In this document: in pieces, positions 1,883 to 38,811 of the stretch | Position numbering within the stretch: the first letter of the stretch is position 1 | Layout of the letters: each line of letters begins with the position of its first letter | Assembly: GCA_001464585.1 (NCBI GenBank) | Contig: LNFF01000022.1 | Span: forward strand, 79,107 to 143,106 | DNA: 64,000 nt | Reading direction: 5' to 3' | DNA from: Gammaproteobacteria bacterium Ga0077554 | GTDB lineage: Bacteria; Pseudomonadota; Gammaproteobacteria; Ga0077554; Ga007554 | Program-made: the position numbers and the translations under genes | Notes under the pieces: model-generated | What the model saw: only the letters and a program-made list of their open reading frames with translations | The model's database searches: none | Told to the model about the DNA's origin: nothing

Positions 1883-2653
1883 CTAAAGCTTACGTAAAAA
1901 ATCCACATTCACATAAGCGCAGCCATGCGCATTACCGGAAATAACGTGTATAGGCTGATGTGGCTCGCCGAGATGATCAAGCACCAGTAACGCGCCCGCG
2001 AAATCATGATCATGGGTATATTCGTTGATAGTCACTACTGTGCGTAAACCGGCATCGCGCGCGGAGCGAAATCCGTTTTCGGAATCTTCAAATGCCAGAC
2101 ATTGCGCAGGTTCCAACCGCATGGCGTGCATGGCGTAGTGATAAATATCCGGTGCGGGCTTTTTGGCGGGCACCACATCGCCCGCTGCAATTACTTCAAA
2201 CCACGTGGCGCTGTCGCTGCCCAGGGTATGATCCAATAATGCAATGACGTTATCCGGCGAGGTGGTGGTGGAAATTGCCAGACGCAACCCTTGGGCGCGC
2301 GCCTCTTCCAGCAAGCGCCGCACGCCGGGACGTAGCGGAATCTTGCCCTGTGACAGCAATTGAGCGTAGTAACGATTTTTTGCCAGGTGCAGGCCGAGAA
2401 TAAATGAATCAAGATTACTCAATGCGGCGGCAGGTAACGAGGGTGCATATTGTTCAATGTAGAAACGAATACGCTCTTTGCCACCCGTAACCCGGAGCAG
2501 CTTGCCATACAGATCAACTGTCCAGTCCCAATCGACCCCGGCTTCAGCAAAGGCTATATTAAATGCGGGGCGATGGCCATCACGCTCCGTGTCGGCCAAG
2601 GTGCCATCAACATCAAAAATCAGTGCGGCAAGATTTGTCATGGTTATTTTCAA
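1883..2653 (-). CDS. cbbY: HAD-family phosphatase, CbbY-like
   Basis: N-terminus ALIFDVDGTLADTERDGHRPAFNIAFAEAGVDWDWTVDLYGKLLRVTGGKERI matches the CbbY / HAD subfamily IA motif (DxDGT). Confidence 0.7.
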   Translation of the reverse strand: MKITMTNLAALIFDVDGTLADTERDGHRPAFNIAFAEAGVDWDWTVDLYGKLLRVTGGKERIRFYIEQYAPSLPAAALSNLDSFILGLHLAKNRYYAQLLSQGKIPLRPGVRRLLEEARAQGLRLAISTTTSPDNVIALLDHTLGSDSATWFEVIAAGDVVPAKKPAPDIYHYAMHAMRLEPAQCLAFEDSENGFRSARDAGLRTVVTINEYTHDHDFAGALLVLDHLGEPHQPIHVISGNAHGCAYVNVDFLRKL

Positions 2654-2680
2654 TCTTAAGTTAAAGGTTAAGGGGCTATA

Positions 2681-2736
2681 TCATTGCGAGCGTAGCGAGG
2701 AATCCTGAAGATCCCTCTCTGCGTTCGGGATGACAG
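2681..2736. repeat. Family-A repeat, copy R2, between cbbY and panC
   Basis: tcattgcgagcgtagcgaggaatcctgaagatccctctctgcgttcgggatgacagc; related to gtcattccgagcaccgcgaggaatcc...gttcgggatgaca in R4/R5. Confidence 0.6.
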
Positions 2737-2757
2737 CATTAGGCGGTGCCCATAAAT

Positions 2758-3606
2758 TCAGATGTCAATCTGTATATTGTCTATCAAGCGTGTGCTGCCT
2801 GACCAGGCCGCGGCCAGCACTACTAGTTCGCTATCACCTGGCTCGGGCAGCATCAGATCATGGCTACGGCGCACGGTGAAATAATCCGGGGTAAATCCGG
2901 CATCACGCAATGCCTGCATGCCTTGTTCCGCAAGCATTGCATAATCACGCGCACCCTCACTGATATGCTGGTGCGTAGCACGCAACACCTGATAAAGCCG
3001 TGACGCACCAGAGCGCTGTTCCGCTGTGAGATAACCATTGCGCGAACTCATGGCCAGACCGTCCGGCTCGCGCACGGTGGGCACACCGAGAATGGTAATG
3101 GGCAAGCACAAGTCAGCTACCATACGGCGTATTACCAATAATTGCTGATAATCCTTTTCGCCAAAAACGGCAATATCCGGTTGTACAATATTAAAAAATT
3201 TATTAACCACAGTGGCAACACCGACAAAATGGCCGGGGCGCGAGGCGCCGCATAAAATATCGCTTAAGCCAACCACCTCGACCCGCGTGGTATTTTCCGC
3301 GCCATGCGGATACAACTCCGACACTTCCGGGAGAAATAAAGCATGCACACCATTTTCCGCCAGCGCGATGCTATCCGCAGATAATGTGCGCGGGTAAGTA
3401 GTGAAATCCTCGTTGGCGCCAAACTGCATGGGATTAACAAAAATACTCGCCACAACCCGGTCCGCACGATGCACGGCTTGCGCCATGAGATGAATATGTC
3501 CGGCATGCAGATTGCCCATGGTCGGCACAAAGGCAATACGCTCGCCCTTGTTCCGCCACACGTGGATCATGCCACGCAACTCGGTAATGGTACGTACGGT
3601 GCGCAT
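2758..3606 (-). CDS. panC: Pantoate--beta-alanine ligase
   Basis: 282 aa; motifs FVPTMGNLHAGH and FGEKDYQQ typical of PanC; adjacent to panB. Confidence 0.95.
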   Translation of the reverse strand: MRTVRTITELRGMIHVWRNKGERIAFVPTMGNLHAGHIHLMAQAVHRADRVVASIFVNPMQFGANEDFTTYPRTLSADSIALAENGVHALFLPEVSELYPHGAENTTRVEVVGLSDILCGASRPGHFVGVATVVNKFFNIVQPDIAVFGEKDYQQLLVIRRMVADLCLPITILGVPTVREPDGLAMSSRNGYLTAEQRSGASRLYQVLRATHQHISEGARDYAMLAEQGMQALRDAGFTPDYFTVRRSHDLMLPEPGDSELVVLAAAWSGSTRLIDNIQIDI

Positions 3607-4415
3607 TAGCTAAAGGTGTGTTCGGCAGCAGGAAAGCTGCCATTTTTTACGGCATGAACATAGGCTTCGATGGCGGCTTGAATCGTGGGTTGCCCCTGCA
3701 TAAAATCCCTGGAGAATTTAGGGCGCTTGCCAACGGTGACGCCGAGCATATCGTATAATACCAGCACTTGCGCATCACACCCGGCACCCGCGCCAATACC
3801 AATGACGGACACAGCCACTGCTTTGGTAATTTCTTCTGCAAGACTTGCTGGCACGCATTCCAGCAATAGTATATCTGCCCCGGCATCCTGGAGCGCATGC
3901 GCATCTTCACGCATTTTTTGCGCTACGCTGGCATCACGGCCCTGCACACGGTATCCGCCAAGCTTATGCACCGATTGCGGCTGCAAACCGAGGTGCGCGC
4001 ATACCGGTATGCCGCGCGCCGTAAGCTGACGCACAATATCCACTTGCACCGCGCCGCCTTCGAGTTTCACCATGTGCGCCCCGCCCTCCTGCATCAACCG
4101 CGCAGCATTATGCAATGCCTGTTCAGCAGTGGCGTAACTCATGAAAGGCATGTCTGTCATTAACAGTGCCCGGCTGCGTCCACGCGCGACACAGGCGCTG
4201 TGATACACCATGTCGTCCATGGTGACGGGCAAGGTGGAAGCATGCCCCTGCACTACCATGCCCAATGAATCACCGACAAGAATTACTTCGACCCCAGCAG
4301 CATCCACGACATGCGCCAGACTGGCATCATACGCTGTCAGGCAGGCGAATTTCTCGCCTTTGATTTTCATCTCGCGCAGGGTATTGATAGTGATTTGTGG
4401 GGTCATGGCGGCCAT
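3606..4415 (-). CDS. panB: 3-methyl-2-oxobutanoate hydroxymethyltransferase
   Basis: 269 aa; [33 protein letters not shown] is the PanB signature; panB-panC pair. Confidence 0.95.
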
Positions 4416-4433
4416 CAGGAAAATCCTTTCGCA

Positions 4434-5101
4434 TTAAAGATTAAATGGCAAGGGGTTGAGATAATGGCGCCCACTGCGGCGGGCATGGACATGCTCAACC
4501 AGCTCATTATAATCTTTGTCATTGTCGACAAAGTTGGCGGCGGCGGCATTCACCATCAACAACGGTGCGGCATCATAATGATGAAAAAAGCGCGCGTAGG
4601 CATCTGCCAGGCGTTGCAAATAAGCGGACTCAATTAATTTCTCATAGCCCAGGCCGCGTTTGGCAATACGCGCCAGCAATACTTCAACAGGCGCTTGCAG
4701 ATAAATCACCAGATCCGGCGCTGGAATATCCAAGGTAAGCTGCCGGTATACCTGATCATAAAGTTTCAGCTCATCATCTTCCAGCGTCACCTCAGCGAAT
4801 AACCGGTCTTTTTCCATCAAAAAATCCGATACGCGGCCACTTTGAAACATGTCTGTCTGGCGCAACGCCTGCGTCTGCCGCGCACGCTGCAATAAAAAAA
4901 ACAACTGTGCGGGCAGTGCGGCCTGGCGTGGATTTTGATAAAAGCGTTCCAGAAAAGGATTGGCCTCGGCCTCCTCCAGCAATATCTCACTGCCAAATGT
5001 TTCTGCCAGCCGCTTCACCAGGCTGGTCTTGCCAACACCGATAGGGCCTTCGACAACGATGTAACGCGGCGCAGCTTGTTTTATTTCTACAGATTTCATG
5101 A
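4434..5101 (-). CDS. Deoxynucleoside kinase family protein
   Basis: P-loop VVEGPIGVGKTSLVKRL plus dNK-family downstream motifs. Track ORF extends to 5243 but the upstream 47 codons overlap folK; start placed at MKSVEIK. Confidence 0.8.
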
Positions 5102-7109: not shown

Positions 7110-9354
<2,245 letters not shown>

Positions 9355-12281: not shown

Positions 12282-13385
12282 TTATAGGGCGTGTTCCAAC
12301 GCCTTTAAAAAAGCCTGATTTTCTTCTGGCGTGCTTACGGTAACGCGCAAACAATCCGCCAGCAATGCGCTTGCGCCGTGCATGCTTTTAATCAAAACAC
12401 CTTGCGCCTTGATCGACTCAAAGATTTGTGGCGCACGTCCGGCGGGCACGCGAAACAAAATAAAATTGGCACGGCTCGGATAAACGGTAATGCCATTCAA
12501 TGCACGCAACGCTGTCAATAATTGTTCCCGATTGTCCCGCAGCCTGGCGGCCTGCGCCTCCAGCACATCGTAATGGCGCAAGGCAAATCCAGCGCTGGCC
12601 TGCGTCAATACACTGATATTATACGGTAAACGTATTTTATCCAATTCATTTAACCACGCGGGGGAACCTGCCAACACGCCCATGCGCAACCCTGCCAGTC
12701 CCATTTTCGACAGCGTGCGCAACACCAATAAGTTATCGTACTGTGCAAGGCGCGACATGAAGGTGCTGCCAGCAAAAGCGTTATAAGCCTCATCGACGAC
12801 TACCAGACCTGGGCTGATTTCAATCAGTTCACATACCTGCTGTTCATCAAACAAATTGCCGGTGGGGTTGCTGGGGTACGACAAAAACACTACGGCGGGA
12901 CGATGCCGGATAATCGCCGCGCGCATGGCGGGCATATCCAAACTATAATCACTGGCATTGAGCGGCACGCAGACAAATTCCAAACCGGTAACCGCGGCGA
13001 TCATGCGGTACATGGAAAAATACGGCTCCGGCGTCAACACCGCACGTCCCGGCGCAGCTACCGCCATGGCAATAATTTGTATCAGCTCATCCGAACCATT
13101 GCCGAGCATGATCTCCATGCCTTGCGGCACGTTAAGCGTAGCGCGCAAGAGTATTTTTAAATCACAGGCATGGGGATCGGGATAGCGATTCCACTTTGCA
13201 TCGCGCAATACTTCCAGCCACTCATCAACTAACGGTTTGGGCCAGGTGTAGGGATTTTCCATCGCATCAAGCTTGATGAGATTGCCTATCTCGGGTACAT
13301 GGTACGCAGACAAGGCACGCACTTGCGGACGAATCCACTGCTCCACTAAACTATCAGGGGGAGCATTAGCGGTTTTGGTATTCAT
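12282..13385 (-). CDS. hisC: Histidinol-phosphate aminotransferase
   Basis: 367 aa class-II aminotransferase; PLP lysine region [12 protein letters not shown]. Confidence 0.9.
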
Positions 13386-14724: not shown

Positions 14725-15443
14725 CTATTTTGGTGTCTTGGCTATGTTGGTACGCTTCTGTTCTTTCATTTCCGCCGCACAGGGACGTGTTAGTGCCGTG
14801 GGAGGCAGGATGCCGGGAGCGGCCACTGCTTCGGCAATGCGCGCAATCAGCGCATGCACCACCTCATGCTTCATCTTCATCGACGCTTTGTTCACAATCA
14901 AACGCGAACTGATATTTGCGATCAACTCCAGCGGCGCCAGGCCATTGGCCTTGAGCGTGTTGCCGGTATCAACCACATCGACAATACAATCGGACAAACC
15001 CACTAACGGCGCCAACTCCATGGAACCATACAGCTTGATGATTTCAACCTGTTTGCCCTGCGCGGCAAAATAACGGCGCGTAGTCGCCACGTATTTAGTG
15101 GCGATGCGCATGCGTGCTTCGCTGTTCTTAAACGCGACAGGGCCGGCCAGCATCAGGCGGCAACAGGCGATTTTCAAATCCAGCGGTTCATATAAACCGT
15201 CGCCGCCGTATTCCATCAACACGTCCTTACCCGCCACACCCACGTCAGCCGCGCCATATTCAACATAGGTAGGCACATCGGATGAACGGATAACCACTAA
15301 TTTGATGTTAGGTTGGTTGGTATCCAGAATCAACTTGCGGCTGGTCTCAGGATCATCCACGGGCACAATGCCAGCGTGCGCCAGCAGCGGCAGCGCGTCT
15401 TTAAAAATGCGTCCCTTGGCAAGCGCGATGGTTAAGGTTTCAT

Positions 15444-15447: not shown

Positions 15448-17116
<1,669 letters not shown>

Positions 17117-24991: not shown

Positions 24992-25138
24992 TAAGAGACC
25001 TCTGAGAAACTCGATCAAACGGATGATGGCGAGGCGGAAATGGGCGAAAAAGCGGAGTGTACACGAAGTACATGAGCATTTTGAGCGCATTTCCAACGAC
25101 GCCAGCGCCGTTTCAGCGAGTTTCTCAGAGGTCTCTTA
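24992..25138. repeat. Family-B ~150-bp structured element, copy B1; perfect 22-bp terminal inverted repeats
   Basis: taagagacctctgagaaactcg ... core ggcggaaatgggcgaaaaagcggagtgtacacgaagtacatgagcattttgagcgcatttccaacg ... cgagtttctcagaggtctctta. Sits in a larger structured spacer 24872-25147 flanked by aaataagtgtta / taacacttattt. Confidence 0.7.
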
Positions 25139-29302: not shown

Positions 29303-29455
29303 CTCCAGGGCACCTCTAATAAAAATTCGATCAAGACGCGAGGGCAAGGCGGAAATGCGCGAAAAAGCGCAGTGTACACGTCGTACATGAGCATTTTGAG
29401 CGCATTTCCAACGCAGCCATCGTGGCTTTAGCGGATTTTTAGAGGTACCCTCCAG
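29303..29455. repeat. Family-B ~150-bp structured element, copy B2; its right arm overlaps the holB 3' end
   Basis: ctccagggcacctctaataaaaattcg ... ggcggaaatgcgcgaaaaagcgcagtgtacacgtcgtacatgagcattttgagcgcatttccaacg ... cggatttttagaggtaccctccag; core is 90 % identical to B1. Confidence 0.7.
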
Positions 29456-30423
29456 TTAATCAGAATATCTTCCAGTAACATCTGTGCATTACTCTGACCC
29501 GCCGCGAGGCGCGAGGCCTCTCTGATTTTATCAAGCTGGTCATAAAAGGTTTTCAAGTTTAATTGTTCAGCAAGTGCCTGTAAACGCAAACGCGCATCAG
29601 GATTCGCCAATAGCGGGGGATGCTCCGCTGACTTGAGGCGAATCATATCAATAATATAACTGTGCATCCAATATAGCGTCTCTTTCAGCTCTAACTTCAG
29701 CCAAATCGCCGCTAATGACACAGGTGACACCTGATTGAGCAATAAACGCTCCATGCCGTCGAGCACATTCAGGCGTTGGCTAGTCTGCCCACCCTGTGCC
29801 ATTTGCAACGCCGCGAGCGGCGCTCCACTAGCCAGTGCCAATAATAATGCGGCATCATGATCTGGGCCCAGTTGTGCGGCCAGCCAGGAAGCGGCAACTT
29901 TTTGGGCGGGAAGTGTACAGGTGATGCGCTGGCAGCGGCTGCGCAAGGTTGCAGGCAGAGCCGTGGCGTTGTTGGCAACCAGCATCAATAATGACCGGGG
30001 CGCCGGTTCTTCCAGTGTTTTAAGCAGGCTGTTGGCCGCCTGTGTGTTCATGCACTCAGCGGGAGAAATAACAACCACTTTATAACCGGAGTAATGCGCT
30101 TTCATATTCAGATTAGCACTGATCTCACGCACCTGGTCAACGCCAATTATTTTTTTGTCTTCCAGCAATCCCACCCAATGATTATCCGGGTGAGTGCCCG
30201 CCTGATTAAGCAGGCAACCACGGCAGGCGCCGCACGGTCTGGCGTCGGCAGAAAGATGCTCGCACAATACGGCGCGCGCAAACGTCTGGGCAAAAGATTC
30301 TTTACCGATCCCCTGCGGGCCAGTCAGCAACATGGCATGTGGCAAGCGGTCTTCATGCAGACGCTGCATCAGCCCTTGCCATAGGGTGTGTTGCCACGGG
30401 AATACTTGATTGCTGCTGATCAT
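29428..30423 (-). CDS. holB: DNA polymerase III subunit delta-prime
   Basis: AAA+ clamp-loader fold, [13 protein letters not shown]; zinc module CGACRGC; last six codons (VPLKIR*) lie within repeat B2. Confidence 0.85.
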
Positions 30424-31079
30424 AATGTAGCAAAAAAATCGGTAAGCACCGTCTGGATATTTTTTTGCACATCCTCTAGCGGTTGCGCGGCATCAATCAC
30501 CCGGTAACGCGCGGGATGTTGCTGCGCCAGTGCCAAATACGCCAGGCGCACCCGTTCAAAAAAAGCCGCCTGCTCGGATTCAAAACGGTCTGGGGCGCTG
30601 CGCTGTCCGGCGCGCTGCAAACCTTCGGCCACTGGTAAATCCAGCAACAGCGTTAAGTCAGGACGCAACGCGCCCTGCACCCATTCTTCAAGTGTGGCAA
30701 TACGCTCACTGGAAATGCCTCGCCCCCCTCCCTGATACGCATAAGTGGCATCGGTAAAACGATCGCACAACACCCATGCGCCTGCCTCGAGTGCGGGGAG
30801 AATAACCCGCGCCAGATGCTCGGCGCGTGCCGCAAACATCAGCAGCAATTCGGTGTCGCTGGACATGCCATCTTCACGGCGCTCCAGCAACAGGCCGCGA
30901 ATCTGCTCCGCCAGCGGCGTGCCACCCGGCTCGCGGGTGACTATCACCGTGTGGCCCGACATTTCAATGCAACGGCGGATGAATTCACGATTGGTGGTTT
31001 TCCCCACGCCTTCGGCGCCTTCAAGCGTAATGAATTTTCCGCGCCTTGCAGTAATATGAGGGGGTGACGGTGCCATCAA
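30420..31079 (-). CDS. tmk: Thymidylate kinase
   Basis: [15 protein letters not shown]-loop, DRF motif. Confidence 0.9.
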
Positions 31080-31444
31080 CGATCCAATACCTCATGTCGT
31101 GTATGTTCAACAATTTTCAGCACTTCATTGATCAAGGATTTTTCAATGTTCAACTCTTCAAGCGTGGCGCGAAGATGTTGCACCACAATATCAAAATGGG
31201 CACTACCCAAGCCGCGCTGCACCAAACGCGCATGCGCACTGCGCAGATCTTTTCCGGCATAATGCGTCACGCCGCCAAACGCAAAGGTTAAAAAGCCTTT
31301 CTGCTTTTCTATCTGCTGATTAATATCAGTCCCTTCAAAAAACAGCTTGACACGTGGATCGCGTATCACTTTGCGATAAAATATCTCTACCGCCGCATTG
31401 ACAGCGGCCTGTCCTCCGAGTCGGGTATACAAATCTTCGCTCAT
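31076..31444 (-). CDS. glbN: Group-1 truncated haemoglobin
   Basis: LYTRLGG ... FF ... 2/2 haemoglobin fold motifs; start at internal ATG ([11 protein letters not shown]). Confidence 0.75.
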
Positions 31445-31513
31445 GAAATAAACTTTACCCATACCACGTTTAAATTTATCAGCCTGCAAACAGCGGTTCA
31501 GCTTTTTCCAGAA

Positions 31514-32041: not shown

Positions 32042-32572
32042 CTACCCAAGCATCAGGTCGATCGGCTCAAGCTGCACTTCTATGCCTTTGCCATCCAATA
32101 TCTGCACAGCAGATTCCAGCGCCGCCACGCCTTGCAGGGCACGACCTTCAATTTGCATGATGTAAATGGGTTTGTCTTCGGTGCCTGCGACATCCGATTG
32201 CAGGTCAAGAATGTCCAGCCCGGCGTCAGCCAACACGGTAGTCACCTGCGCGACAATGCCGGCACGGTCGGCACCAAACACGCGGATATGCACATCCGCT
32301 TCCGGGTGACGATGCAGTTGGCCTTCAATTTTATCAACATGCAATTTCAGCCCCAGCGATTCGCACACCGGCGCCGACGTGTTTTCCAGCGCCGCCGTGT
32401 TGCCTGCGTATTGCACCATCAACATCACAGTGAAGTTGCCCCCCAGACGCGTCATGGACGCTTCACCCAGGTTGCAACCACCGTCATACAACGCAGCTGT
32501 AATACGCGCGACAATGGCGGGGCGGTCTTTACCTACGACGGTGAGCATGAACCAGTGGGGTGCTGTTGTCAT
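32042..32572 (-). CDS. Tandem ACT-domain protein (GcvR-like)
   Basis: Two ACT repeats (LTVVGKDRPAIVARIT ... ; RVFGADRAGIVAQVT ...). Confidence 0.55.
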   Translation of the reverse strand: MTTAPHWFMLTVVGKDRPAIVARITAALYDGGCNLGEASMTRLGGNFTVMLMVQYAGNTAALENTSAPVCESLGLKLHVDKIEGQLHRHPEADVHIRVFGADRAGIVAQVTTVLADAGLDILDLQSDVAGTEDKPIYIMQIEGRALQGVAALESAVQILDGKGIEVQLEPIDLMLG

Positions 32573-32585
32573 GACGCATGACTCC

Positions 32586-33380
32586 CTAATGCAATGTTGA
32601 ATGTACGATGTAAATCAATAAAACACCCACACCAATCAGCGTGGCCTGTTGCACGGTGGCGGCGGGTTGCACACGTTTATGCAGGCCGGGTATCAAGTCT
32701 GCCACGGCAATATAAATAAAGCTGGACGCCGCTATCGCCAATATATACGGCAAAATATGTTGCATGTCGCCCAGGCTGAAATAACCCAGCAGCGCGCCCA
32801 CAACCGTGGTCAGGCTGGCTAATATATTATACAGAAAAGCCTTTTTGCGGCTAAATCCGCTGTGCAGCAACACCGCAAAATCGCCCACTTCCTGGGGAAT
32901 TTCATGTGCCGCCACCGCCAGGCTGGTGACCACGCCCAAATGAAAATCCGTCAGAAACGCCGCCGCGATCAAGACACCATCCACAAAGTTGTGGATGCCA
33001 TCGCCAATCAGAATCAAGGTGCCTGCTGCCTGGCCTGTTTGATTGGTGTCGGCATGGGCATGTTCCGGCATATGCGCCTCGCAATGGTCAACATGACAAT
33101 GCCGCCACAACACCATTTTTTCCAGCAGAAAAAAGCCCAGCAGACCCAACAATACAGCCAGGGTGATGTTGTGAAAATCCACCACCCCCGGCCCCGCCAA
33201 CGCATGCGGCAACAGCCCCAAAAACGCCGCACCCAACAACGCGCCCACGGCAAAACTCACAAAATGCGGCAAAGCGCGCGTGCGCCAGGTTTCAGGCATC
33301 AATAAAAAACCGGACGCCGCCACCACACTGAGCGCGCCGCCAAACAGACTAAAAAGAATTATCCAACCAAGAAGGTTCAT
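32586..33380 (-). CDS. zupT: ZIP-family metal transporter (ZupT-like)
   Basis: 8 predicted TMs, His-rich loop HCHVDHCEAHMPEHAH, conserved HE..E motifs. Confidence 0.8.
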   Translation of the reverse strand: MNLLGWIILFSLFGGALSVVAASGFLLMPETWRTRALPHFVSFAVGALLGAAFLGLLPHALAGPGVVDFHNITLAVLLGLLGFFLLEKMVLWRHCHVDHCEAHMPEHAHADTNQTGQAAGTLILIGDGIHNFVDGVLIAAAFLTDFHLGVVTSLAVAAHEIPQEVGDFAVLLHSGFSRKKAFLYNILASLTTVVGALLGYFSLGDMQHILPYILAIAASSFIYIAVADLIPGLHKRVQPAATVQQATLIGVGVLLIYIVHSTLH

Positions 33381-33492
33381 GAGCGAAGAGGTTCAATCTA
33401 TAAATGTGTGGGCATGATACCCTAATATAGGGGTTGCCGCTGGAGTAAAACACGGGGATGTATTGTAAATTATTGATAAATAAATAAAAATC

Positions 33493-33657
33493 TACGCGGC
33501 AAGCTATGGGGCATTTCTATGTCATTCCGAGCACCGCGAGGAATCCTAAGCAAGATCCCTCCCCCGCTTTCGCGCGGGTCGGGATGACAATACACGCAGC
33601 AAGCTGCGGGGAGAGCGTAGCGAGGGGCCCAAACCCGAAGAGATTGAAATGACAAAC
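33493..33657. repeat. Family-A composite repeat R4; left boundary of NACHT cassette
   Basis: ...gcaagctatggggcatttctat gtcattccgagcaccgcgaggaatcc taagcaagatccctcccccgc...gggtcgggatgacaata cacgcagcaagctgcggggagagcgtagcgagg...aaacccgaagagattgaaatgacaaac; same direct orientation and ~85 % identity to R5. Confidence 0.7.
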
Positions 33658-33688
33658 AATGCCGTGGCGTCGCGAATTGGCAAATAAC

Positions 33689-33787
33689 TTCCGGTTGTCG
33701 CGAAGCCAACTTAAAGAAACCGAACAAATTATCGAGGTACACCACGATGAGCTCAAACGCGCTTGGCACAAACACTTCCCAGGTTGA
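33689..33787 (+). pseudogene. DUF4160-family gene remnant (C-terminal 32 codons only); N-terminus replaced by repeat R4
   Basis: FRLSRSQLKETEQIIEVHHDELKRAWHKHFPG* resembles the DUF4160 C-terminus; no start codon; overlaps DUF2442 start as in intact two-gene modules. Confidence 0.45.
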
Positions 33788-34007
33788 AGTCACCCATATT
33801 TCAAATCACGGCGTGTGGCTGTTGGCTCGCGGTCACGAGTTATTCATGTCTTACGAAAAATTTCCATGGTTCAGGGATGCGCCTGTGGGAAAAATCCTGA
33901 ATGTTGAAGAGCCAACGTCAGGGCACTACTACTGGCCGGATCTGGACGTTGATTTAACCGAAGAAATAATCTCGCATCCTGAGCGTTTCCCACTTCAGGC
34001 AAGATAA
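33747..34007 (+). CDS. DUF2442-domain protein
   Basis: 86 aa; ...YWPDLDVDL... motif; usually paired with an upstream DUF4160 gene. Confidence 0.65.
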   Translation: MSSNALGTNTSQVEVTHISNHGVWLLARGHELFMSYEKFPWFRDAPVGKILNVEEPTSGHYYWPDLDVDLTEEIISHPERFPLQAR

Positions 34008-34196
34008 CGCATAACAACTACGCACGCTTGATGCGCTTAACATATTCGCTCTTGATTGTTGGGCTTCGCAGGCTCAGCACCAACCTACCCGCCCAACTTA
34101 CTGCGTTTGTCCAAACGAATAGTGACCTGGGTTAGAATCGTACCTAGCCACGAAATAACATTACGATACCGAATAAATATGACGCGATTGGTTTGC

Positions 34197-36746
34197 TCAT
34201 AGGCATTCTAATGGGGTGTTGGGATTTTTCGCCACTCGCATACGCACAACCAGGTCGTCATCCGCCGCGAGCTGCATGAGCACATCGGCCGGGGTAGTGG
34301 CATTCTCCGCTACACGCCGACGCACATGCTGGTCGTCGTCCGCCACGAGCCGCGTGAGCACCCCGACCGGAGTAGTGGCATTCCCCGCCACCTGCCAGCG
34401 CACATCCTGGTCGTCATCCGCCACGAGCCGCGTGAGCACCTCGGCCGGGGTATTGGCATTCCTCGCCACGCCCCCACGCACACGCGGGGCGTCGTCCGCC
34501 GCGAGCCCCGTGAGCACCTCGGCCGGGGTATTGGCATTCCTCGCCACGCCCCCACGCACACGCGGGTCGTCGTCTGCCACGAGCCCCGTGAGCACCTCAG
34601 CCGGAGTATTGGCATTCCACGACACCCGCTGGCGCACATCCTGGTCGTCATCCGCCGCGAGCCGTGTGAGCACCTCGGCCGGAGTATTGGCATTCCACGC
34701 CACCTGCCAGCGCACATCCTGGCCGTCATCCGCCGCGAGCCGCGTGAGCACCTCGACCGGAGTATTGGCATTCCCCGCCACCTGCCCGCGCACGTATCTG
34801 TGAGGATCTTTGGCTAGTTTACCCAAAACCTCACTCGGTGTTTGACTATCGGTTGCAATGGCAATCCTTCTCAGCCCAGACGTTTGACAGTGACCCCACA
34901 AATAGGTCTCGATCCCGTTGCCTTCCGCTGTCATCGCTACCCCGCTGCGCCGCCATACATGCAGGGCGGTGCGCAGTCCACTGAAGGTGCGCTCTTTTCC
35001 ATTAATGATGCGAACATGATAGCCCTGATCGATCAACCACTCCGTAGCCTCTTTACGTTGCCCGGCTGTGCTCAGGCTCCAGGTAAGCGCCAGTACTTCC
35101 TGATAATCGGGTTGTTGCCAATGGCGTTGAACTACGTCCACCAGACTACTTTGCTGAATATTGGCTTGCGCCAAACACCATTCCTGAAAGGTTAAATGCA
35201 GGAATTCATAATAGTGTCCATAATCTTTCAGTATGCCTGCCGTCACTGCCACGTTGCGGAGAGTATCGTTCGAAAAACCATCATCAAGTCGGTTATTTTT
35301 CAATGTGCGGTAGGCGTGATCCAATTCTCGTCGCGGTATTTCCGTAACACGTTGCACATTCCCGGAGGCCACCAGATGAACAAGCCACGCGTGCACCACA
35401 GAAAATGCCAGGCTATCGGTTTCTGCGGGGTGACGGTTTCTGCATAATTGATAAAATGCTTCCTGGTAAAACTGGGCGCGATTTTTGGGTAATTTAATCT
35501 CTTTGTCAGGTGGATTCACCAAGGCGATTAATGTCAGGAGTAAAGGATTCGCAGTCAGCTCGCTTACCTTGTCATCAGCTTGGAGTGTTTGCCACAGTTT
35601 GTCGGCCCACGCCCCATCCACTTGATTCAAGCGCTGCCGCATCATGCCACTATGACGGCTACCTTGCCACACGCCAACTAGAGCCAACAAAAAAGCACGC
35701 TGGTCACGGGGTAACATCCCCATCACGTAATGGACCTGATCATTGGCGATGTGTTTATCAAACTCACCGTAGTAGCTGGCGGTGCGGCAGGTGACAATTT
35801 TCAAACCCGGCAAGGCGGCTACTTGCTCAGCACTCCGTTGTGCCCCAGGCAGTTCGTCCCAGCCGTCCAGCAACCACAGGCGTGTCGTTTGCCCACCCTC
35901 TTCCGTGCGCGGCACCCGGCCAAGATCGCGCAACCGAAAGACGGCGATATCATCGCGGCGGCACCCTTGGTGCCAATGTTTTATGAGTGTGGTCTTACCG
36001 CTGCCTGGTTCACCCAATATTACGGATATGCCCGCGCTCTTTTGCAGACGCCGCTGCCAAACCACATCTGCATTTTCACGTTTAAAGCGCTGTTGCGACA
36101 CATGCTCGCCGGACTTTTGCCAGCCGAGGGGAAATTCAAGGGGATTACTTTTTTCTTCCTGGGGTGAACGCGTGTTTATCGACTGCCGAACCAACCGGCC
36201 GAGCTGTAACGGATGATAAAAAGAGGGGTAGAGTCCGTCGGGGCTGCTTTTAATCTCAGGCTGATAGAGGGAGGATTGTCCACGCTGTAATAACGTATCG
36301 ATCCCTTGATTCGCGCTGGCAATACCGCGTAAAACCATGTGTTCACGAAATTCATTGGTGCGGGATAGATTCTCTGCGAGCTGTTTGAGCAATCCTTCTG
36401 TTTCTGCTGTGAAATCGATATTGGCGGTAGATGAGCCCACAGCACGTTGCCATACCGAAGCGATTCGTTCGATATTAGGGCGCTTACTCACGTCCAGGAG
36501 TAACACCAGTTCATTCCGTACGGCATCGTCGAACAGTGGCCCTTCTTTTAATAACAATGCATCCGCCAACGCCTTTTTGGTTTCACCCGCATGTTCTTGA
36601 TACCATGTCAGGGTGTCCCGTAAGGCCGCTTCAAATACACGGCGCTCTTGCTGGTTCTTCAAGAGGTCGTTTAGTGAAGATTCACCCGCGTATCCCAGAA
36701 GAAACTCAGTGAGCTTTGCAACGATCGTTATTGTTATTGGATCCAT
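34197..36746 (-). CDS. STAND NTPase: N-terminal uncharacterised domain + NACHT + 8-9 C-terminal LRV/HEAT-like 23-aa repeats
   Basis: Walker A ILGEPGSGKTT, Walker B LWLLDGWDE, then repeats NANTPAEVLTRLAADDDQDVRWQVAW. Start ambiguous: TTG 36797 in track vs ATG 36746 with AAGGA upstream. Confidence 0.8.
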   Translation of the reverse strand: MDPITITIVAKLTEFLLGYAGESSLNDLLKNQQERRVFEAALRDTLTWYQEHAGETKKALADALLLKEGPLFDDAVRNELVLLLDVSKRPNIERIASVWQRAVGSSTANIDFTAETEGLLKQLAENLSRTNEFREHMVLRGIASANQGIDTLLQRGQSSLYQPEIKSSPDGLYPSFYHPLQLGRLVRQSINTRSPQEEKSNPLEFPLGWQKSGEHVSQQRFKRENADVVWQRRLQKSAGISVILGEPGSGKTTLIKHWHQGCRRDDIAVFRLRDLGRVPRTEEGGQTTRLWLLDGWDELPGAQRSAEQVAALPGLKIVTCRTASYYGEFDKHIANDQVHYVMGMLPRDQRAFLLALVGVWQGSRHSGMMRQRLNQVDGAWADKLWQTLQADDKVSELTANPLLLTLIALVNPPDKEIKLPKNRAQFYQEAFYQLCRNRHPAETDSLAFSVVHAWLVHLVASGNVQRVTEIPRRELDHAYRTLKNNRLDDGFSNDTLRNVAVTAGILKDYGHYYEFLHLTFQEWCLAQANIQQSSLVDVVQRHWQQPDYQEVLALTWSLSTAGQRKEATEWLIDQGYHVRIINGKERTFSGLRTALHVWRRSGVAMTAEGNGIETYLWGHCQTSGLRRIAIATDSQTPSEVLGKLAKDPHRYVRGQVAGNANTPVEVLTRLAADDGQDVRWQVAWNANTPAEVLTRLAADDDQDVRQRVSWNANTPAEVLTGLVADDDPRVRGGVARNANTPAEVLTGLAADDAPRVRGGVARNANTPAEVLTRLVADDDQDVRWQVAGNATTPVGVLTRLVADDDQHVRRRVAENATTPADVLMQLAADDDLVVRMRVAKNPNTPLECL
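34216..34820. repeat. Near-identical 69-bp tandem DNA repeats (~9 units) encoding the LRV-type repeats of the NACHT protein
   Basis: Period-69 units such as cgcgagccgcgtgagcacctcggccggggtattggcattcc...; produce spurious ORFs on both strands in all frames (34216..34803+, 34310..34771-, 34326..34817+). Confidence 0.85.
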
Positions 36747-36940
36747 TGATGCAGAATGTTCCTTAAACACTTGCCTTTCAGGGAGGGTTACACCCAATTA
36801 CTTTACCATGACATGAAGAAAAATAGTGCGTGGGACGCGGGGGAAATAGCAAAATCAATCCATAAAAAAAGACCCGCCGGCAGTAAATCCGGGGGTCTCT
36901 TGGTGCGAGGTTGAATGATTAACTTCTAAAATAAAAATCC

Positions 36941-37086
36941 CCGTAGTAAGCTGCGGGGTATTTCTATGTCATTCCGGACACAGCGAGAAATCTTAAACAA
37001 GATCCCTCTCTTCGTTCGGGATGACAATAAACGCAGCAAGCTGCGGGGAGAGCGTAGCGAGGGAGAGCCAAACCCGAAGAGATTGA
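36941..37086. repeat. Family-A composite repeat R5; right boundary of NACHT cassette
   Basis: ccgtagtaagctgcggggtatttctat gtcattccggacacagcgagaaatc ttaaacaagatccctctcttcgttcgggatgacaataaacgcagcaagctgcggggagagcgtagcgaggg...aaacccgaagagattga. Confidence 0.7.
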
Positions 37087-37115
37087 TACCACTTTACACC
37101 CAGCCAGACCAATCT

Positions 37116-37874
37116 TTACTTCGCCAGCCAGATCAAACTCGCCATTCTGCCCGTAATGCTGTCACGCCGAAAAGAGTAAAAGCGTTGCGCGTCGGTGTAG
37201 GTGCATTCGCCGCCGCCATATACCGCTGTGACGCCCTGACGCGCCAGGCGTTGTCGGGCGAGCTGGTAGATGTCTGCAAGCCAACGTCCAGTAGGCGCAG
37301 GTTTAAAGGCATCTACTGCCTGCGGGTCGTGCGCCATGAATATCTCACGCACTTCTGCGCCTACTTCAAAGGCTTGTGGGCCGATGGCCGGGCCCAGCCA
37401 CGCCATGAAGCTTTCCGGGGGGGCGTCGAGCGCGGCCAGTGTGGTTTCTATGACGCCATTGGCCAGGCCGCGCCAGCCAGCATGCGCGGCGGCAACTTTG
37501 CTGCCTTCGCGGTTACATAGCAACACGGGCAGGCAATCTGCCGTCAATACGGCGCACACGACGCCTGCTTCGATAGTGTAACTGCCATCGGCGGTGCAAC
37601 CTACTGTAACCTCGGCGGCATTCACAATCTGCGTGTCATGCACTTGATTCAGCCATACCGGCGCGGCAGGCAGGTTCAGACGACGCTTCAACTGCGCGCG
37701 ATTAACAGCGACGTCCTGCGCGACATCGCCCACATGATCACCCAGGTTGAAACCCGCATAGGGAGCCCGGCTCACACCGCCGAGGCGGGTGGTGGTGTAT
37801 GCCTGCACATTAGCGGGCGCGGGCCAGTCGGGAATGATCCAGTCAGTACTATTCTTCATGGGCAACCCGGTCAT
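37116..37874 (-). CDS. pgeF: Peptidoglycan editing factor PgeF (YfiH family)
   Basis: YfiH motifs (NLG...GD, QVHD, CxxxxLLC, HAGWRG); start may be the ATG at 37859; rluD-pgeF pair. Confidence 0.8.
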   Translation of the reverse strand: MTGLPMKNSTDWIIPDWPAPANVQAYTTTRLGGVSRAPYAGFNLGDHVGDVAQDVAVNRAQLKRRLNLPAAPVWLNQVHDTQIVNAAEVTVGCTADGSYTIEAGVVCAVLTADCLPVLLCNREGSKVAAAHAGWRGLANGVIETTLAALDAPPESFMAWLGPAIGPQAFEVGAEVREIFMAHDPQAVDAFKPAPTGRWLADIYQLARQRLARQGVTAVYGGGECTYTDAQRFYSFRRDSITGRMASLIWLAK

Positions 37875-38811
37875 CGTGCAGTGCTTTAATCAGCGTGGTC
37901 ATGTCATCGGGTAACGGCGCGTGCCATTCCATCGGCTCACCGCTTTCAGGGTGCTGCAATGCCAGCCGCGCGGCATGCAATGCCTGGCGCTTGAAGGTGC
38001 GTAGCGTGGCCATTAATGATTCGCTGCTGCCGGGTGGAATGCGCAAACGTCCGCCGTACACCGGATCACCCAGCAAGGGGTGATGAATATAGGCCATGTG
38101 TACGCGAATCTGATGGGTACGGCCAGTTTCCAGATGTACTTTAATATGGGTGTGGATGCGGAAGCGTTCAGCCACGCGGTAATGACTCACGGCGGGTTTG
38201 CCGCTGCGGGTTACGGCCATGCGCTTGCGGTCTACGGCATGGCGGCCAATCGGCGCGTCAACGCTGCCGCCCGAGGTCATCACGCCCATCGCTACCGCTT
38301 CATATTCACGCTCAATGCTGCGTTCCTGGAGTTGTTGCACCAGATCGGCCTGCGCGGTGAGGGTGCGCGCCACCACCAGCAGACCGCTGGTTTCCTTGTC
38401 GATGCGATGCACAATTCCGGCACGCGGCACATGCACCAGCTCGGGGGCGTAGTGCAGCAATGCGTTGAGCATGGTGCCATCATGGTTCCCCGCCGCCGGA
38501 TGCACCACCAGTCCGGCAGGTTTGTTGATCACCAGCAAATGTTCGTCTTCATACACGATGTGCAGCGGGATGGCCTGGGGCAGCGAGGTCACTTCCTCGG
38601 CCAGCGTGGCGGTAAGCTCAATCTGTTCACCGCCCACCACTTTGTCTTTGGCGCGCCACTGACGGGCGTCCACCGTCACCTGACCACCGCGTATCCATTG
38701 TTGCAGACGCGCGCGCGAATAGCTGGCAAACATCTCGGCCAATGCCTGATCAAGGCGCATGCCCGCCAGCGCGTCCGGAACGCGTGAAGATAAATGTTCT
38801 GTATTGGTCAT
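37849..38811 (-). CDS. rluD: 23S rRNA pseudouridine synthase RluD
   Basis: S4 domain + catalytic HRIDKETSGLLVVA. Confidence 0.9.
   Translation of the reverse strand: MTNTEHLSSRVPDALAGMRLDQALAEMFASYSRARLQQWIRGGQVTVDARQWRAKDKVVGGEQIELTATLAEEVTSLPQAIPLHIVYEDEHLLVINKPAGLVVHPAAGNHDGTMLNALLHYAPELVHVPRAGIVHRIDKETSGLLVVARTLTAQADLVQQLQERSIEREYEAVAMGVMTSGGSVDAPIGRHAVDRKRMAVTRSGKPAVSHYRVAERFRIHTHIKVHLETGRTHQIRVHMAYIHHPLLGDPVYGGRLRIPPGSSESLMATLRTFKRQALHAARLALQHPESGEPMEWHAPLPDDMTTLIKALHDDRVAHEE

Follow-up and report, generated by a model that had tools for sequence, protein, structure and literature searches.

Bacterial proteins with a NACHT module, of several clades and including repeat-bearing ones, defend against phage, and a Walker B motif of the form D[GAS]hDE separates the NACHT proteins from other STAND NTPases (Kibby et al., bioRxiv 10.1101/2022.07.19.500537). 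The families DUF4160 and DUF2442 correspond to DhiT and DhiA of Dickeya dadantii 3937. Experiments in that strain established them as a type II toxin-antitoxin system with the toxin gene first: DhiT inhibits growth, co-expression of DhiA relieves the inhibition, and the two proteins in complex regulate their own operon (PMC8198452). The Menshen study describes the system in the same way, places a DUF2442 gene directly after most DUF4160 genes, and also predicts that DUF4160 is an effector domain of Menshen NsnC-like proteins (PMC12065111). The minimal mobile elements of Neisseria (Saunders & Snyder 2002, as presented in PMC1797815) combine one to three accessory genes, no mobility genes, conserved housekeeping flanks, different content at the syntenic site in relatives and intergenic repeats at the junctions, a layout which recurs at the locus described here. 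This locus lies in a window of 64,000 nucleotides (nt) from Gammaproteobacteria bacterium Ga0077554 (GenBank assembly GCA_001464585.1, contig LNFF01000022.1, positions 79,107 to 143,106), and consists of an NLR-like STAND NTPase gene with a NACHT module and an LRV repeat (the NACHT gene below), a DUF4160/DUF2442 pair and two direct repeats, R4 and R5, between zupT and pgeF. A preliminary description had taken it for a repeat-bounded mobile cassette carrying a possible new defence arrangement. The comparison with five related loci makes it probable, in our judgement with good confidence, that it is a small island of accessory genes, placed at a variable site prone to recombination and composed of three independent layers: a decayed DhiTA module, the NLR-like gene and passenger repeats.

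The loci compared were obtained by a pgeF scan of species-representative genomes, giving the two close relatives L004 and L005, and by look-ups of NTPase homologues, giving L001, L002 and L013/L014. A blastn map combined with junction alignments resolves five states of one site. The window holds R4, a DUF4160 remnant, an intact DUF2442 gene, an intact NACHT gene and R5. Locus L002 (about 90% nt identity) retains R4 with a 24-nt loop insertion, the DUF4160 remnant and the NACHT gene, while DUF2442 is replaced by about 160 unrelated nt and 92 unrelated nt stand in place of the missing R5. L013/L014 (92.8% nt identity in the zupT flank) lack R4 and possess R5, a complete DUF4160 gene of 79 amino acids (aa), DUF2442 and a NACHT gene that is split and shortened. 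L005 has neither repeat, no DUF2442 and no NACHT gene, and its 113-nt gap contains an approximately 85-nt scar of the DUF4160 3' end, with a Smith-Waterman score of 35 against 19.8 +/- 2.1 (maximum 29) for shuffled sequences. L005 was also considered as a pristine empty site and rejected as such, as this significant 3' remnant is retained. L004 extends no more than 885 nt beyond pgeF before its contig ends, which leaves the zupT side outside; R5 is absent and pgeF is instead accompanied by a high-GC gene for an AlkZ-like glycosylase (PF06224, E 5e-19), which runs off the contig end.

Each of the repeats R4 and R5 has thus come or gone on its own, without the other and without the genes. As L013 carries the genes and R5 without R4, L002 carries R4 without R5, and L005 carries neither, the cassette with its toxin-antitoxin module predates both repeats. 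The zupT-pgeF interval is a truly variable site, an accessory island between conserved genes. Divergence between the window and L013 is a mosaic, the synonymous divergence (dS) being 0.07 in DUF2442 and 0.39 in the adjacent NACHT gene. This suggests recombination breakpoints inside the island, and is no more than an indirect hint of exchange at zupT-pgeF by transformation and homologous recombination in the flanks. The ratio of non-synonymous to synonymous divergence (dN/dS) of the NACHT gene is 0.28-0.44, compared to 0.02-0.12 for zupT, pgeF, rluD and def, so that the gene evolves faster than its neighbours and yet is still constrained. The zupT orthologues in L005 and L013 show 85.8-92.8% nt identity and a dN/dS of 0.05, and the pgeF orthologues in L004 and L005 a dN/dS of 0.10.

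The two direct repeats which the preliminary description had seen bracketing the segment are real, although it had placed their left ends about 11 nt too far to the right. In a gapped blastn alignment R4 (33482-33647) and R5 (36929-37086) are 81.5% identical over 168 columns (E 2e-42) in direct orientation, and a repeat search recovers three blocks in the same register, one of 80 nt with 83% identity, one of 48 nt with 98% and one of 19 nt with 100%. Both units consist of a GC hairpin CGYRGYAAGCTRYGGGG, an imperfect palindrome of about 60 nt (TGTCATTCCGRRC..GAGRAATC / GATCCCTC..CGGGATGACA), the CGYRGYAAGCTRYGGGG hairpin again and a composite-specific tail (GAGCGTAGCGAGGG..CAAACCCGAAGAGATTGA) that ends in GAAGAGATTGA. 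The half-sites of the palindromic core give 10 matches at seven loci of the window, where shuffled sequences give 0, and all seven loci are intergenic; the full composite, with CGYRGYAAGCTRYGGGG twice and the tail, is limited within the window to R4 and R5. A metagenome scan with the composite tail yielded three more copies (two full-length, one cut by a contig end) on contigs that have no other sequence in common with the window. One of the full copies is situated between the MucB/RseB (rseB) and HtrA-type protease (htrA) genes, downstream of a gene for an extracytoplasmic function (ECF) sigma factor; the contig holding it, L009, has a second core-repeat copy at 99-218, just past the 3' end of a long open reading frame (ORF) at 212-1912 on the minus strand. 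The composite ends are sharp and common to six aligned copies (AATAAAAATC...GAAGAGATTGA). Copies at housekeeping loci with such sharp ends mean that the unit is a dispersed intergenic repeat, and R4 and R5 are best classified, from their sequence, as dispersed repeats of about 165 nt, similar to repetitive extragenic palindromic (REP) elements or miniature inverted-repeat transposable elements (MITEs) and built from shorter palindromes.

With REP elements, bacterial interspersed mosaic elements (BIMEs) and MITEs the repeats have in common a short unit (60-nt core, 165-nt composite), multiple copies, a strictly intergenic position, strong hairpins and sharp common ends. They differ in that no clear terminal inverted repeats or target-site duplications were seen and no Rfam family matches; in the four full copies none of these MITE hallmarks, whether a terminal inverted repeat or a duplicated flank, was convincing. 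We know of no cognate transposase for the 165-nt repeat. When folded as single strands and compared to shuffles, R5 forms a strong hairpin (z = -5.1) and R4 does not stand out (z = -0.45), and as R4 folds no better than shuffled sequence a conserved role of RNA or DNA structure in both repeats is not supported. The core repeat occupies 7 of about 57 intergenic gaps, a density at which chance alone would give about 0.7 pairs of adjacent occupied gaps per window; bracketing of a segment by such repeats is therefore statistically unremarkable.

The DUF4160/DUF2442 pair of the window is by its sequence a decayed DhiTA module, with the toxin inactivated and the antitoxin remaining as an intact orphan. 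Homology of the window DUF4160 to the intact L013 gene begins at about 33672, so that the 3' half only survives and the toxin has neither a promoter nor its N-terminal half. In the lineage of the window and L002, R4 and about 24 nt of unrelated sequence have taken the place of some 320 nt that included the dhiT promoter and the first ~39 codons. The L013 orthologue covers the whole profile (1-65 of 65, 68.9 bits, full 79 aa); a 57-aa gene call at this place was tried as a truncated toxin and rejected, as an upstream ATG gives the complete protein. The window DUF2442 protein is 95% identical to that of L013 at the amino acid level, with a dN/dS of 0.27. Like DhiTA of Dickeya, the module consists of the same two Pfam families in toxin-first order, with the antitoxin gene directly downstream and overlapping the toxin ORF (33747-33787), and the L013 pair is complete. 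Unlike it, the window toxin has lost its promoter and N-terminal half, and the sequences are distant from the Dickeya proteins. The loci form a decay series, from the complete pair (L013) over loss of the toxin (window) and additional loss of the antitoxin (L002) to the 85-nt scar (L005). The genes of the pair converge with the NTPase gene, and they are found beside a NACHT gene at this one orthologous site only, being absent from the other contexts (L001 and the distant homologues).

The NTPase itself is a true NACHT-clade STAND protein, as indicated by family-level and structural evidence. Its Walker A motif (GEPGSGKTT) has G245, E246, G248, G250 and K251 invariant in the family alignment (A1), as are D294, G295, D297 and E298 of its Walker B motif (LWLLDGWDE), the DGWDE part of which fits the D[GAS]hDE signature. 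Further motifs of the module are a TCR sensor motif and a winged-helix motif, FLHLTFQEW. The family profile matches NOD2 (E 5e-6), NLRP1, NLRP3 and NLRC4, with NOD2 and NLRC4 aligned across the NTPase core and NLRP1 and NLRP3 at profile positions 497-531, the FLHLTFQEW winged-helix region. Among curated families the best match is NCBIfam EruA (NF058535), an antiphage protein with a NACHT domain, which aligns over residues 243-462 in the NACHT region at E 2.9e-9 and scores 35.7 bits where the cut-off is 1000, while Avs4 (NF041815) reaches 10.5 bits against a cut-off of 1500. The window protein is thus neither an EruA nor an Avs equivalog; EruA resembles it in the NACHT region and differs in its length of 1318 aa and its architecture. 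Four of 11 family members match Pfam NACHT, the best at E 3.7e-7. The full-length AlphaFold2 (AF2) model has a mean predicted local distance difference test score (pLDDT) of 72, with 70-95 in the NACHT and solenoid parts and about 45-55 at the N-terminus, and its best Foldseek matches are NLRP9, NLRP7 and NLRP3 (E 7e-9 to 4e-7), followed by the HEAT repeats of PP2A-A.

The C-terminal solenoid, presumably the sensor, scores 116.7 bits against the Pfam PF01816 cut-off of 21.6, matches 1LRV at E 1e-16, and consists of 26-aa repeats which the AF2 model folds with high confidence into a solenoid of alternating helices. At the DNA level it is a tandem array of 78-nt units at 34230-34793 (7.2 copies, 85% matches in Tandem Repeats Finder; GC 0.68-0.70), and its copy number varies among the homologues in A1. 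The protein shares with the repeat-bearing or 'antigen-receptor' type of bacterial NACHT protein (Kibby et al.) the arrangement in one polypeptide of an N-terminal output domain, a NACHT module with D[GAS]hDE and a winged-helix extension and a HEAT-like C-terminal repeat, as well as an N-terminus of the NNH type in the domain vocabulary of that paper, the stand-alone gene and the patchy distribution. It differs in lying below the Pfam thresholds for NACHT and NNH2, in its 26-aa LRV sensor and in the family size of about ten members.

The N-terminal domain, of which the preliminary description had left about 250 aa unassigned, is now assigned in part, residues ~6-140 being identified by sequence comparison as a divergent NNH2 (NACHT N-terminal helical domain 2). 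A phmmer search of residues 1-210 against 1.84e9 representatives matched 16 proteins. Of those scanned for domains, six (P0025, P0026, P0029, P0030, P0031 and P0033) match NNH2 (PF22734) at E <= 1.4e-4 over exactly the stretch matched by the query, four of them exceeding the 27-bit cut-off and the other two lying just below it, and the library-wide phmmer E-values of the window N-terminus to these six are 7.6e-6 to 7e-4; motifs are conserved across the NNH2 stretch in alignment A2. In other matches an NNH2-like domain is fused to NB-ARC plus WD40, WD40, TPR or NACHT bodies, and since it is found on such varied bodies it appears to be a shuffled N-terminal output module. Remodelled in AF2 with a dedicated alignment, the domain is predicted as an eight-helix bundle (pLDDT 85.4, predicted template modelling score 0.79). 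Foldseek found no convincing structural homologue of it among solved structures, and nothing below E 0.4 among viral models; a Pfam scan of residues 1-210 at E <= 10 returned a lone chance Arb2-like match. The domain is presumed to be the output, as an effector or an adaptor.

Outside this site the NACHT homologue P0003 of L001 (71% aa identity) occupies a different chromosomal site between dnaE and HigBA-like/ParE genes. Its homology to the window is restricted to the coding sequence and about 75 nt downstream, and no repeats of the R4/R5 family were found at the L001 site. The copy carries a 3' frameshift (~12500-12640), the true C-terminus (...NANTPLECL) being readable in another frame, and the L013/L014 gene (L013 338-2585) is split into 541 and 205 aa with about 500 nt of the LRV end gone. 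Among the distant homologues, P0007 lacks NNH2 and lies 26 nt downstream of an LCAT/PGAP1-like lipase/esterase gene (Joint Genome Institute sample 3300042731; genes 336-1973 and 1999-4686), and might represent a system of two genes in which the effector is encoded on its own. The gene for P0008 (L015 1092-4357) follows a serine recombinase (Resolvase) gene at a distance of 18 nt, with a protein kinase gene further upstream. P0009 (L011 5694-8972) is a DUF4062-NACHT-LRV variant with an Unstab_antitox gene upstream both on L011 and on a sister contig (sample 3300078620), the latter also having a gene for a caspase-like Peptidase_C14 downstream. Toxin-antitoxin, resolvase, caspase-like and lipase-like neighbours of this kind are typical of conflict-system neighbourhoods.

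The features of the locus are given in Table 1. The start codon of zupT points toward the island, and an alternative start of the NTPase gene, TTG 36797 upstream, would give a protein of 866 aa. The hairpin between R5 and the NACHT gene start is GC-rich, followed by T7 and kept in the L002 alignment; it looks like a terminator which would shield the NACHT gene from pgeF read-through, although an automated scan made no call at 36856-36900. No ORF of the island matches an integrase or transposase family, and every sizeable ORF is accounted for. A search of the locus for tRNA or tmRNA genes as integration targets found none, and the Rfam search of 32500-38000 at E <= 1 returned zero matches. Beyond zupT there are genes for a bacterial-type (truncated) globin and a protein with two ACT domains (31076-31489 and 32042-32572), which are ordinary housekeeping context conserved in L005. 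Elsewhere in the window, a 99-nt direct repeat pair (25025-25123 and 29340-29438; 85% identity), one copy of which abuts the start of a holB-like ORF (29428-30423), is unrelated to the R4/R5 family, and 51-nt repeats of a third, short family (61-88% identity) occur at 7987-8037, 14771-14821, 15583-15633 and 55693-55743.

Table 1. Features of the zupT-pgeF island and its flanks (positions in the window)
Feature	Position	Strand	Remarks
zupT-like ZIP-family zinc transporter	32586..33380	minus	conserved left flank; Pfam Zip E 6.7e-36
R4 repeat copy	33482..33649	plus	hairpin, 60-nt palindromic core, hairpin, tail
DhiT-type DUF4160 toxin remnant	33659..33787	plus	Pfam DUF4160 E 9e-6, profile 35-65 of 65
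DhiA-type DUF2442 antitoxin, intact, orphan	33747..34007	plus	Pfam DUF2442 46.7 bits, cut-off 23.9, E 3.8e-12
NLR-like STAND NTPase gene, intact	34197..36746	minus	849 aa from ATG 36746; NNH2-like + NACHT + LRV
LRV (HEAT-like) solenoid, C-terminal	34200..34874	minus	Pfam LRV 116.7 bits, E 1e-34
NACHT module with helical/winged-helix extension	34977..36104	minus	residues ~215-590
N-terminal all-helical NNH2-like domain	36327..36746	minus	residues 1 to ~140
Terminator-like hairpin, then T-run	36856..36900	minus	between R5 and NACHT start; read from sequence
R5, second repeat copy	36929..37086	plus	between pgeF stop codon and island
pgeF-type gene (Cu-oxidase_4/YfiH)	37116..37874	minus	conserved right flank; Pfam E 1.7e-74
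RluD-type gene rluD	37849-38811		next after pgeF

The gene content given in the preliminary description (truncated DUF4160, intact DUF2442, an NTPase of about 850 aa, and zupT and pgeF-rluD as flanks) is borne out by the Pfam matches, as is its reading of the NTPase as a NACHT/STAND protein with an LRV sensor by the motifs, the EruA region, the NLR profile and Foldseek matches and the 116.7 bits of the LRV. The profile searches it had proposed confirmed LRV, DUF4160 and DUF2442 and left the window protein below the Pfam NACHT threshold, with P-loop-level matches only in PADLOC. Its comparison to the minimal mobile elements holds in part. The site is accessory and variable, L005 being nearly empty, L004 having the AlkZ-like gene and P0003 residing elsewhere, so that a comparison from zupT to rluD does reveal presence, absence and alternative content; the repeats, however, do not travel with the genes and are not the boundaries. 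Unlike the Neisseria elements as presented in PMC1797815, the alternative content here comes from contigs of metagenomes and metagenome-assembled genomes (MAGs) only, one of them cut at the contig end, and the repeats, which are unrelated to dRS3/Correia elements, can be shown not to mark the limits of the unit.

One explanation of the layout is that the block from R4 through the DUF4160 remnant, DUF2442 and the NACHT gene to R5 moves or excises as a unit, with the repeats as cassette boundaries. The direct orientation and the 81.5% identity over about 165 nt would permit recombination between the copies, the indel relative to L005 begins a few nt at most from the left end of R4, L004 homology resumes right after R5, and the lack of an integrase or tRNA gene means that a non-classical route would be needed. 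This explanation is very improbable, since L013 and L002, which have the same genes with one repeat only (without R4 and without R5, respectively), already contradict it. Recombination between the repeats would also leave something other than the reduced site of L005, which is a DUF4160 fragment and no solo repeat, the NACHT gene of L001 sits at a second site without such repeats, and the 165-nt unit also occurs in housekeeping intergenic regions, with about 0.7 chance brackets expected per window. The further proposal of the preliminary description, that the NACHT gene and the DUF4160/DUF2442 pair make up one undescribed defence system, is hardly credible, and so is a version of it with DhiT as an effector released by the NLR-like sensor. 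The window and L013/L014 retain the adjacency and L002 a part of it, an effector role of DUF4160 is predicted for Menshen NsnC-like proteins (PMC12065111), and toxin-antitoxin genes are also near the L001 and L011 homologues. However, all adjacent loci are one orthologous site in close relatives and thereby a single evolutionary instance, the genes are convergent and not co-transcribed, and the toxin is destroyed in the window and in L002, which has lost DUF2442 too, while the NACHT gene stays intact. L001 and the distant homologues have no DUF4160/DUF2442 neighbours, and the pair is the known DhiTA, which works alone as a toxin-antitoxin system (PMC8198452).

Another possibility is that the NACHT-LRV gene is non-immune. 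It would then encode a STAND ATPase that serves the cell itself in signalling or regulation, or else be a functionless, decaying relic. No known defence-system model matches in PADLOC, no recognisable enzymatic effector emerged from Pfam and structure searches, related copies are disrupted, and a dN/dS of 0.3-0.44 also fits relaxed constraint. We regard this as unlikely, though worth keeping in mind, as the reading frame is unbroken through 849 codons, every catalytic motif is invariant and dN/dS is clearly below 1. The patchy distribution, the change of site, the neighbourhoods rich in toxin-antitoxin genes and the recently homogenised, variable repeat sensor are moreover the usual signature of conflict systems, and phage defence has been shown for bacterial NACHT proteins from several clades (Kibby et al.). 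Several observations weigh against the island reading and the protein assignments that go with it. The window protein has no match to Pfam NACHT (PF05729) at E <= 0.01, and its residues 1-210 have none to NNH2 even at E <= 10; the PADLOC matches (PtuA, HEC-02A and mad8, E ~1e-3) are at P-loop level only and were rejected. The NACHT-LRV family is small, with about 10 true homologues among 5.8e9 protein clusters, and the damaged copies of L013/L014 and L001 may mean that the gene is on its way out. The alternative cassette of L004 is visible from one side only, in a MAG whose contig ends inside the gene, and R5 is present in the window and L013 yet absent from L002, the closest NACHT allele, which needs loss or recombination.

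The accessory-island reading would account for the locus as follows. The shared ancestor of the related genomes would already have carried a DhiT/DhiA module at the site, and the module would since have decayed; the rearrangement that brought R4 probably removed the toxin promoter and the first ~39 codons, leaving the orphan antitoxin. R4 and R5 would be separately acquired passengers in intergenic space and no vehicle of the island, and homologous recombination in the conserved flanks would be the simplest account of gain, loss and exchange of island content. By analogy to the repeat-type bacterial NACHT proteins, the solenoid may bind a phage-derived or infection-altered ligand, which would release autoinhibition and allow the NACHT module to bind NTP and oligomerise. 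Oligomerisation would cluster the N-terminal helical domains, and the clustered NNH2 domains might then act on the cell directly or recruit another factor, resulting in growth arrest or death of the infected cell. It is a speculative and rather unlikely extension of this scheme that the NNH2-like domain is a self-sufficient death or growth-arrest effector, with a fold not yet among the solved structures, activated by NACHT-driven clustering. Plant coiled-coil (CC) and fungal HeLo domains attack membranes by a released N-terminal helix, and a conserved hydrophobic first helix might be released here in the same way. If this were true, the rare NNH2-NACHT-LRV family would be a compact model for such an effector.

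The repeat-bounded layout had suggested a new type of mobile defence cassette, and the related loci show three ordinary, independent layers instead. The protein adds a rare member to the bacterial NACHT proteins already known, its gene lies in an accessory hot spot of an ordinary sort, and no new category is needed. The interest of the locus lies in a NACHT subfamily of great rarity, in which an LRV sensor is combined with what is presumably an NNH2-type output domain. In addition, the series of loci records the stepwise decay of a chromosomal toxin-antitoxin module at one hot spot, in which a composite repeat of about 165 nt appears to have been caught destroying a toxin gene.

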